Source: a virus
Strand: one strand, 5' to 3'
Virus record (IMG/VR): IMGVR_UViG_3300033463_005627
Span: 1-23,008 of that record
DNA: 23,008 nt
The notes under the pieces were generated by a model. The model had not been told where the DNA came from, searched no databases, and saw nothing but the letters and a program-made list of their open reading frames with translations. Made by a program: the position numbers and the translations under genes. Below, piece by piece: positions 10,186-10,276 of the stretch; position 1 is the first letter of the stretch; the number at the start of each line of letters is the position of its first letter.

Positions 10186-10276
10186 CAAGGGCGGAGCGAT
10201 TCGAACGCTCATCAGCGGCATCAAACGCGCTTACAGATTTAGAGTCTGCTGTTTTCGACCATTAAACTACGCCCCT
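10186..10276 (-). tRNA. Class II (long variable arm) tRNA with anticodon CUA, an amber (UAG) suppressor; identity probably Ser (G73), with Tyr or Leu not excluded
   Basis: Cloverleaf folded by hand on the minus strand. Acceptor AGGGGCG/CGCCCTT (one G-U pair). U8A9. D-stem GTTT/AAAC with a 9-nt GG-containing loop. Anticodon stem GCAGA/TCTGT. Loop CTCTAAA, with U33, anticodon 34-36 = CTA and A37. 22-nt variable arm AAGCGCGTTTGATGCCGCTGAT with an AGCG/CGCT stem. T-arm GAGCG-TTCGAAT-CGCTC (perfect). Discriminator G; CCA is not encoded. Confidence 0.75.

Follow-up and report, generated by a model that had tools for sequence, protein, structure and literature searches.

What does a phage do with a transfer RNA (tRNA) that can read the stop codon UAG, and which amino acid does such a tRNA carry? 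Both questions are raised by a 91-nt tRNA gene with the anticodon CUA on the minus strand (10186-10276) of IMG/VR virus record IMGVR_UViG_3300033463_005627, of which we analysed positions 1 to 23,008; this whole stretch of 23,008 nucleotides is referred to here as the window. An earlier sequence-only reading had described the gene as a class II amber suppressor with an extended variable arm (V arm), with serine as its favoured identity, and had noted in-frame TAG codons in two homing endonuclease genes nearby. Our comparative analysis leads to a different amino acid. The gene probably encodes a functional amber suppressor that inserts glutamine at UAG, a reading to which we assign a probability of about 0.78.

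The tRNA and its fold are confirmed. ARAGORN finds one tRNA in the whole window (minus strand, 10185-10277, anticodon cta), and Rfam family RF00005 matches 10186-10276 on the minus strand over the full model (58.9 bits against a gathering score of 29; E 1.3e-10). We verified the layout base by base on top of the ARAGORN drawing. The acceptor stem has 7 bp (AGGGGCG/CGCCCTT), with A1-U72 and G2.U71; a 4-bp D stem is capped by a 9-nt loop, AATGGTCGA, that contains GG; a perfect 5-bp anticodon stem (GCAGA/TCTGT) closes the 7-nt loop CTCTAAA; and the T arm reads GAGCG-TTCGAAT-CGCTC. The discriminator is G73 (10186, minus strand), and no CCA is encoded. The base-by-base check, Rfam and ARAGORN all place the anticodon CTA at 10240-10242 (minus strand; positions 34-36), between U33 and A37, and the tRNA thus has the features expected of an amber suppressor: a 7-nt loop in which U33 and a purine at 37 border CUA at 34-36. 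The variable region is 22 nt long (AAGCGCGTTTGATGCCGCTGAT; 10211-10232, minus strand) and forms a hairpin with a bulged or mismatched stem. Every structural claim of the sequence-only reading (the cloverleaf, T arm, anticodon loop, U33 and A37, 22-nt arm and G73) proved correct, and its proposal of a phage-encoded amber suppressor with a long variable arm is supported.

Comparison with other viral contigs, which carry L-numbers here, is consistent with a tRNA that is maintained. The same gene is present in independent assemblies of the same phage (L023, L024), and L006, L008 and L028 carry compensatory changes in the acceptor, D, anticodon and T stems. Several other structural assignments were considered and set aside. 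ARAGORN draws an 8-bp acceptor stem (T-1.G73) that is absent from L006 and L008, and we did not accept it. We also considered the V hairpin as the true anticodon arm of another cloverleaf and rejected this for decoding: V stems range from 3 to 6 bp and V loops from 4 to 9 nt, whereas the CUA arm is always 5 bp with a 7-nt loop. ARAGORN labels any tRNA with a CUA anticodon as tRNA-Pyl by default. The tRNA-Pyl fold is compact, with a 3-nt variable loop, a small D loop and a 6-bp anticodon stem; the 22-nt variable region, 9-nt D loop with GG and 5-bp anticodon stem of the window tRNA exclude this assignment, as had been argued before, and there are no pyl genes among the annotated genes of the window. 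tRNA-Sec requires 8/5 acceptor/T geometry, a 6-bp D stem and a UCA anticodon, where the window tRNA has 7/5, a 4-bp D stem and CUA; the canonical 7 + 5 likewise separates it from allo-tRNAs (8/4 or 9/3). With permissive Rfam settings, the 600 nt around the gene gave no match other than the tRNA itself, and we found no sigma-70-like promoter on the tRNA strand and no terminator on either strand near the gene.

The codon that this tRNA would read is used in frame in the window. The minus strand is densely coding under the standard code, and treating TAG as a sense codon joins only two substantial pairs of open reading frames (ORFs), both encoding GIY-YIG homing endonucleases. The first, HE1 (12697-13620, minus strand), is a free-standing enzyme of 307 codons with one in-frame TAG, recognized by Pfam GIY-YIG and PHROG homing endonuclease matches and by full-length homologs. 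Its TAG, codon 79 (13384-13386, minus strand), is conserved in a syntenic ortholog with 76% amino-acid identity in L019-L022, which are relatives of the window phage, as are L026-L028. This ortholog has four TAGs and no TAA, TGA or indel; one TAG lies at the same codon as in the window, and the other three stand opposite CAT, CAA and CAG of the window gene. Between the window and L019, the ratio of nonsynonymous to synonymous divergence (dN/dS; NG86) is 0.129 over codons 1-78 and 0.164 over codons 80-307, at a synonymous divergence (dS) of 0.8-0.95. The value past the TAG indicates that the segment after it has long been under purifying selection.

The second gene, HE2 (17063-18346, minus strand; 427 codons), joins an N-terminal GIY-YIG domain to a 316-aa domain and contains two TAGs. 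This fusion is kept in L026, L027 and L028, so that it is in frame in four lineages, down to 42% identity, and is interrupted by TAG only. Codon 53 (18188-18190, minus strand) is TAG in the window, L026 and L027 and CAT (His) in L028; codon 91 (18074-18076, minus strand) is TAG in the window and L026, ATG in L027 and ATT in L028; further TAGs fall at alignment column 56 in L027 and at column 107 in L028. Gene callers split HE1 into 78 + 196 aa and HE2 into 52 + 316 aa. The 316-aa C-terminal part of HE2 (17063-18013, minus strand) has no Pfam or PHROG family match; presumably it represents a new type of module with which homing endonucleases bind DNA, and, having its own ATG, it might be made alone when TAG is unsuppressed.

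TAG is not used as a terminator by the 35 curated minus-strand genes, which end in TAA (20) or TGA (15), and the three in-frame TAGs among 6929 window codons all lie in HE1 and HE2, which make up 10.6% of the codons (chance ~0.001). The widespread in-frame TAG, above all in late genes, by which code 15 phages are recognized is not seen in the window, which has these three TAGs only and holds no late genes. The conserved TAGs and the dN/dS values support the earlier claim that TAG is in frame in both homing endonuclease genes, and on this comparative evidence TAG appears to be translated in this phage lineage.

Which amino acid is inserted can be estimated from the residues that stand opposite TAG in related genes. 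TAG has entered ordinary genes in L027, where it replaces CAG or CAA (Gln) at four sites and GAA (Glu) at two: both TAGs of a deoxyribosyltransferase gene are opposite CAG in the window and L028, and the four TAGs of a gene for a 193-aa protein are opposite Q/R, E/E, Q/Q and E/E. Across 14 sites in real genes of the clade, the partners of TAG are Q at 6, E at 4, H at 2, K at 1 and M/I at 1, with no S, Y, L or W at any of them, and a BLOSUM62 ranking of the same sites gives Q 35.8, E 30.8, H 12.8, K 10.2 and S -4. Over all loci, 698 in-frame TAG sites have an aligned partner; these counts contain some noise from non-coding frames, and the leading non-TAG partner is Q (61.9 weighted sites), followed by E (25.7), K (24.6), S (15.7) and Y (8.6). 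The Q partners are divided between CAA (31.3 weighted) and CAG (30.6). CAA is two mutations from TAG and is nevertheless as common as CAG, so mutational proximity does not explain the prevalence of Q. Glutamine is the best reading of TAG by these measures, and glutamate would be the sole serious alternative. Tryptophan, an identity suggested by A1-U72, G73 and the AGGGGCG acceptor strand, was considered and rejected: W is opposite TAG at 4 of ~210 weighted sites and at none in the clade genes. A public protein from L019-L022, P0001, is a silent code-15 translation in which four TAG codons are written as Q, and its Q residues are therefore not independent evidence for the amino acid. Entries of this kind make a recoded gene look uninterrupted and can bias amino-acid inference from alignments.

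The tRNA itself also points to glutamine. Two pattern scans of IMG/VR, the second of which left the anticodon stem and variable region free, yielded 45 distinct long-arm tRNA(CUA) genes; the contigs that carry them are 4-396 kb long. RNAalifold recovers a cloverleaf plus a variable-arm hairpin, with compensatory changes in 21 of 22 consensus pairs; all 39 aligned members have the loop CUCUAAA, which is not an independent result because both scan patterns required it. The identity set of E. coli glutaminyl-tRNA synthetase (GlnRS) consists of a weak 1-72 pair together with G2, G3, G10, G73 and U35. The window tRNA, with A1-U72, G2.U71, G3-C70, G10, G73 and U35, is Gln-like by this measure. In the long-arm CUA family, pair 1-72 is never G-C (U-A in 17, A-U in 10, mismatched in 18), 2-71 is G-C in 37, G10 is present in 43, and position 73 is G in 33 and A in 12. 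The seven tRNA-Gln genes of the same loci are similar, with 1-72 U-A in 5 and A-U in 2, 2-71 G-C in 7, G10 in 6 and G73 in 7. The 18 tRNA-Ser genes of these loci have G-C at 1-72 in 17 and at 2-71 in 12, G10 in 10 and G73 in 16; the 31 tRNA-Leu genes have 1-72 G-C in 25, 2-71 C-G in 25, G10 in 19 and A73 in 30; and the four tRNA-Tyr genes have 1-72 G-C in 3, 2-71 G-C in 2, G10 in 1 and A73 in 4.

Some members of the family occur in tandem with a conventional suppressor. A type I tRNA(CUA) of 72-73 nt and a long-arm tRNA(CUA) of 88-91 nt lie 5-6 nt apart in the large gut phage contigs L001, L004, L005, L011, L012, L016 and L152, and phage phAss-1 (L078, 2923-3088) likewise pairs the two types. 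The T arms of adjacent genes are identical in the contigs where they were compared, phAss-1 not being among these. When 185,579 species genomes were scanned with the family pattern, only two matches proved to be true, both on contigs of metagenome-assembled genomes that resemble binned gut phages.

The feature that sets this family apart is the apical loop of the V hairpin, which reads YUG in all 45 long-arm tRNA(CUA) genes and YUGA in 42. CUG and UUG are the two glutamine anticodons. In the window, the loop GUUUGAU (10220-10226, minus strand), which we term the pseudo-anticodon, presents UUG (10222-10224) preceded by U and followed by A, as in a real anticodon loop, with the A after YUG in the place equivalent to A37. 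The V loop of the RNAalifold consensus is also 7 nt, and in one subgroup of the family the loop reads CUCUGAA, which equals the real anticodon loop CUCUAAA after restoration of G36. The V-hairpin stems are completely turned over between lineages, with the motif kept. The window tRNA therefore combines a stop anticodon with a sense anticodon in its V loop, the two structural features of a proposed family of pseudo-anticodon-arm suppressors.

As an independent test of this motif, opal suppressors were sought with a pattern that places no constraint on the variable region. The 13 long-arm tRNA(UCA) genes found (L080, L084-L086, L089, L090, L094, L095, L114, L126, L140, L144 and L147) carry YUGA in none of their arms, CCA in 13 and UCCAA in 12; among the 45 tRNA(CUA) arms, CCA occurs once and UCCAA never. 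UCCAA is the core of the tRNA-Trp anticodon loop. The arms of ordinary class II tRNAs rarely carry these motifs: YUGA and CCA are found in 2 and 3 of 21 tRNA-Ser arms, 2 and 2 of 32 tRNA-Leu arms, and 1 and 2 of 5 tRNA-Tyr arms, and UCCAA in none of them. Shuffled arms gave YUGA in a mean of 7.2 and a maximum of 17 cases, against 42 observed, and CCAA in a mean of 1.3 and a maximum of 7, against 12 observed. With YUGA on CUA arms and UCCAA on UCA arms, the motif tracks the amino acid assigned to the stop codon, and for both GlnRS and TrpRS the anticodon is a major identity element. The opal suppressor of L140 has acceptor and anticodon stems in common with the window tRNA. ARAGORN labels the long-arm tRNA(UCA) genes as tRNA-SeC, a naming default that we did not adopt, since their acceptor/T geometry is 7/5. 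In an ochre scan, long-arm tRNA(UUA) genes, a small and mixed sample, resembled ordinary Ser, Leu or Tyr tRNAs in their bodies and showed no obvious pseudo-anticodon.

These patterns suggest that the V arm could be a natural second, non-decoding pseudo-anticodon that allows an unmodified, anticodon-dependent host synthetase to charge a stop suppressor, a proposal to which we give even odds. We found no description of a natural variable-arm pseudo-anticodon, or of the Gln/Trp correspondence, in the full-text literature, with most subscription journals outside coverage. Alternatively, the tRNA could be a glutamine suppressor in which the V arm plays no part in aminoacylation, which we regard as possible though somewhat unlikely. 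YUGA and UCCAA might then be relics of a duplication of the anticodon arm, or the arm might serve another partner, such as a modification enzyme or a phage protein, or might give protection from tRNA-cleaving defence nucleases or cause rejection by SerRS. U35 and a weak 1-72 pair are enough for GlnRS, as the mischarging mutants of su+3 and su+7 attest; type I tRNA(CUA) genes without the arm adjoin long-arm genes in gut phages; and the distance of the V loop poses a geometric problem for any role in charging. The turnover of every stem around a conserved motif nevertheless indicates that the motif is under selection, and its switch with the anticodon, between the amino acids of the two most anticodon-dependent synthetases, is hard to account for by a relic or a generic partner.

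It is improbable, but worth considering, that the tRNA inserts glutamate, having been charged by a non-discriminating GluRS with the Glu left unconverted. Many bacteria make Gln-tRNA by way of Glu-tRNA, and Glu stands at 4 of the 14 clade sites with a score close to that of Gln (30.8 and 35.8). Against this reading, the 1-72 pair is U-A or weak, a mark for the amidotransferase. The V loop reads YUG, as for Gln, and not YUC, as for Glu, and over all loci Q exceeds E as a partner by more than twofold (61.9 and 25.7 weighted sites). Assays of phage suppressors favour Gln as well: in E. coli extract, 28 of 29 phage tRNA(CUA) yielded Gln-mass products and 13 of 13 tRNA(UCA) yielded Trp, according to a 2025 preprint on phage suppressors that does not discuss the variable arm (PMC12636597).

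We consider it very unlikely that the gene is a class II suppressor of the Ser, Tyr or Leu type that causes TAG to be read as one of these amino acids, as the sequence-only reading had it. The long variable arm with an internal stem and G73 are both used by SerRS (PMC7609411), and it was on these that serine identity had been favoured. The window tRNA has A-U at 1-72, a pair that is never G-C in the family and is G1-C72 in 17 of 18 tRNA-Ser, while A73 is found in tRNA-Leu and tRNA-Tyr. Its D arm, with a 4-bp stem and 9-nt loop, is not the class II D arm of a 3-bp stem and large loop. At the 14 clade sites, TAG never has S, Y or L as its partner, and Ser scores -4 there against 35.8 for Gln, and the V-loop motif follows the anticodon (Gln or Trp), unlike a generic SerRS arm. 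The V stem, moreover, is short and bulged or mismatched, and a V-stem bulge blocked SerRS in engineered tRNAs (PMC7590224). The tRNA thus appears to be class II in shape only, and not in identity or descent. For tyrosine, the resemblance to supF that had been pointed out holds for the anticodon arm and does not extend further. GCAGA-CUCUAAA-UCUGU is the anticodon arm of E. coli tRNA-Tyr with G34 changed to C; G73, A1-U72 and the absence of Tyr opposite TAG in the clade genes speak against a Tyr suppressor. The tRNA had also been set apart from the suppressors of TAG-to-Gln recoded phages, and in meaning it does not seem to differ from them, since identity positions, TAG partners, the V loop and the phAss-1 member of the family all indicate Gln.

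That the TAGs are inactivating mutations in decaying endonuclease genes, with the tRNA unrelated or inactive, is scarcely credible: decay is frequent among homing endonuclease genes, CAG readily mutates to TAG and the authors of Codetta warn of in-frame stops in pseudogenes, but HE1 and HE2 hold nine in-frame TAG sites across five lineages with no TAA, TGA or frameshift, lineages have TAGs at the same codons at dS ~0.9 with a dN/dS of 0.16 past the TAG, TAG is absent as a terminator, and the tRNA is conserved with compensatory changes.

Several observations sit less easily with a glutamine suppressor that carries a pseudo-anticodon. The V loop varies from 4 to 9 nt, and L006 and L028 have the motif shifted by one base from the 7-nt register. 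The V arm's tip is far from the normal anticodon site, and access to it by a monomeric GlnRS is unexplained. Whole-body similarity to isotype sets pointed to no isotype: with the V arm and anticodon masked, comparison with 231 tRNAs gave no consistent nearest isotype, and type I CUA tRNAs also missed Gln. The TAG partner sites in the clade are few (14) and are mostly variable surface positions, at which Glu scores close to Gln. A long arm and G73 are SerRS features, and some serylation may occur. The scan of species genomes gave no clue to the host of the window phage, and hence none to its Gln-charging pathway. Finally, the TAG-richest relative, L027, has no tRNA at the syntenic site in the 20.7 of 41.4 kb examined; its suppressor may lie elsewhere. 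The TAG-bearing ordinary genes and the syntenic site of L027 are covered by 14563-15589 and 15930-16100; at the site, the conserved upstream element ends in ...GGCGTGATTAATT and is followed by 45 unrelated nucleotides.

If the tRNA is a glutamine suppressor, host enzymes would process the phage transcript and add the CCA end, and the host glutamine system would charge it, either through GlnRS or through GluRS followed by an amidotransferase. The charged tRNA would then compete with release factor 1 for UAG. The UUG-A of the V loop could offer the glutamine enzyme bases that the CUA anticodon lacks (G36), so that decoding would be separated from amino-acid identity and charging would stay efficient; one could speculate that either of the two adjacent hairpins can stack on the D stem in place of the other. 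Read-through would be needed for HE1 and HE2 only, which would otherwise yield N-terminal fragments of 78 and 52 aa, and because no credible gene in the window ends in TAG, read-through would cost little. Given that L027 has spread TAG into ordinary genes, the window phage may stand at the lightly recoded end of a TAG-to-Gln lineage. Alternatively, the endonuclease genes may move between suppressor-bearing phages and bring their own codon usage with them.

Phage amber suppressors and TAG-to-Gln recoding are already known, and some members of the long-arm family are already annotated. Laboratory glutamine suppressors provide a first point of comparison. In E. coli, supE (tRNA-Gln CUA), su+7 (tRNA-Trp CUA) and mischarging mutants of su+3 tRNA-Tyr are charged by GlnRS via U35 and a weak or broken 1-72 pair, and the su+3 mutants show that GlnRS accepts a tRNA whose variable arm is long. 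Charging with Gln is therefore compatible with such an arm. The window tRNA has its 5' acceptor strand, AGGGGCG, in common with E. coli tRNA-Trp and its anticodon arm in common with su+3. These suppressors arose in the laboratory by point mutation of cellular tRNAs and lack a second loop resembling an anticodon, whereas the window tRNA is encoded by a natural, conserved phage gene with a dedicated extra hairpin. Recoded phages are closer. Like them, the window phage encodes a CUA tRNA, has TAG aligned with Gln and would presumably rely on a host synthetase for charging; it differs in the extent of recoding, which is minimal, with three TAGs in 23 kb, all in endonucleases. In phAss-1, a gene that is 100% identical to an L035-type member of the family is annotated as tRNA-Sup-CTA beside a 72-nt type I Sup-CTA, and TAG was assigned to Gln from terminase alignments and the tRNAscan-SE isotype call (PMC10607447). 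The long arm is not mentioned in that paper (PMC10607447).

The arm itself is most similar to a synthetic design. In Mukai 2020, a pseudo-anticodon built into the V arm improved charging by a HisRS fusion, and a bulge in the V stem stopped SerRS (PMC7590224). There, as proposed here, a V-arm hairpin displays the cognate anticodon while the real anticodon is CUA (PMC7590224), and the window V stem shows an irregularity like the SerRS-blocking bulge. The engineered system uses a synthetic allo-tRNA chassis and HisRS with an extra anticodon-binding domain; the window arm is natural, and its partner would be an unmodified host enzyme. The class II tRNAs (Ser, Leu and bacterial Tyr) and tRNA-Sec are alike in having a long-arm hairpin, and tRNA-Ser and tRNA-Sec in having G73; the window family departs from class II tRNAs in the first base pair, the D arm and the form of the V stem, and in a loop motif that depends on the anticodon. 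Endonucleases and recoding have been linked before, in Agate phages, where an intron endonuclease is preferentially loaded with recoded TGA, and a delay in its expression until the suppressor is present was proposed (10.1101/2021.08.26.457843). Agate phages read TGA as Trp in a heavily recoded genome; in the window the codon is TAG, and the endonucleases are the sole recoded genes seen.

Nearly all genes of the window are on the minus strand, and the tRNA is co-oriented with the replication and nucleotide-metabolism genes that surround it. This module includes an NAD-dependent DNA ligase, a class II-type ribonucleotide reductase and a thymidylate-synthase-like gene, alongside genes for a DNA methylase, an integrase, a dUTPase, a nucleoside deoxyribosyltransferase and an 811-aa protein with a vault 'shoulder' domain. 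Three further samples (L023-L025) yielded independent assemblies of this phage. Annotated GenBank phages gave no DNA-level match to the whole window by megablast and no match to the tRNA by blastn; only other family members gave matches. The 811-aa protein (18678-21113, minus strand) matches PF11978, the 'shoulder' of the eukaryotic major vault protein (E 4.6e-16), and is kept in all relatives (L017, L018 and L026-L028). A tyrosine integrase (996-2231, minus strand) lies at the edge of the replication module, and the phage may thus be temperate. In that case, the silence of TAG-gated endonucleases in a lysogen would hinge on expression of the tRNA there. Mobile endonucleases are abundant in the lineage. 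In the window, the ribonucleotide reductase gene is intact (5868-8135; 755 aa); in L027 (18157-20715) and L028 (14344-15985) it is split by a LAGLIDADG endonuclease ORF, as an intron or intein, with a TAG near the downstream junction of the interrupted gene; HE1 is absent from both of these relatives.

Two micro-ORFs lie directly upstream of the tRNA. Micro-ORF 1 (10319-10399, minus strand; MWHKYMICCRGDGG) has a strong Shine-Dalgarno sequence, AAGGAGG, and reaches a TAG at 10355-10357, after which 11 in-frame codons lead to a TGA. That TGA overlaps the ATG of micro-ORF 2 (10284-10322, minus strand; MKARFCGRMRKA), which stops 7 nt short of the tRNA. L027 and L028 keep both micro-ORFs, and the changes before the TAG fall at third positions only. 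Their link to the tRNA is purely positional; a TAG-terminated leader beside an amber suppressor could sense suppressor activity.

Standard gene callers split TAG-containing genes, a practical concern for the annotation of phages such as this one. More broadly, the extra-arm motif suggests a natural answer to the problem of codon reassignment, in which a new decoding specificity is gained without losing a synthetase that reads the anticodon. If this is true, the arm would be a natural device of a kind known so far as a synthetic design only, and the pseudo-anticodon idea would aid the design of efficient or orthogonal suppressor tRNAs. The window phage would represent a minimal stage of recoding, in which TAG has been dropped as a terminator and is used inside two mobile endonuclease genes only. 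Such a stage fits the idea that recoded stops may first gate selfish or toxic genes.

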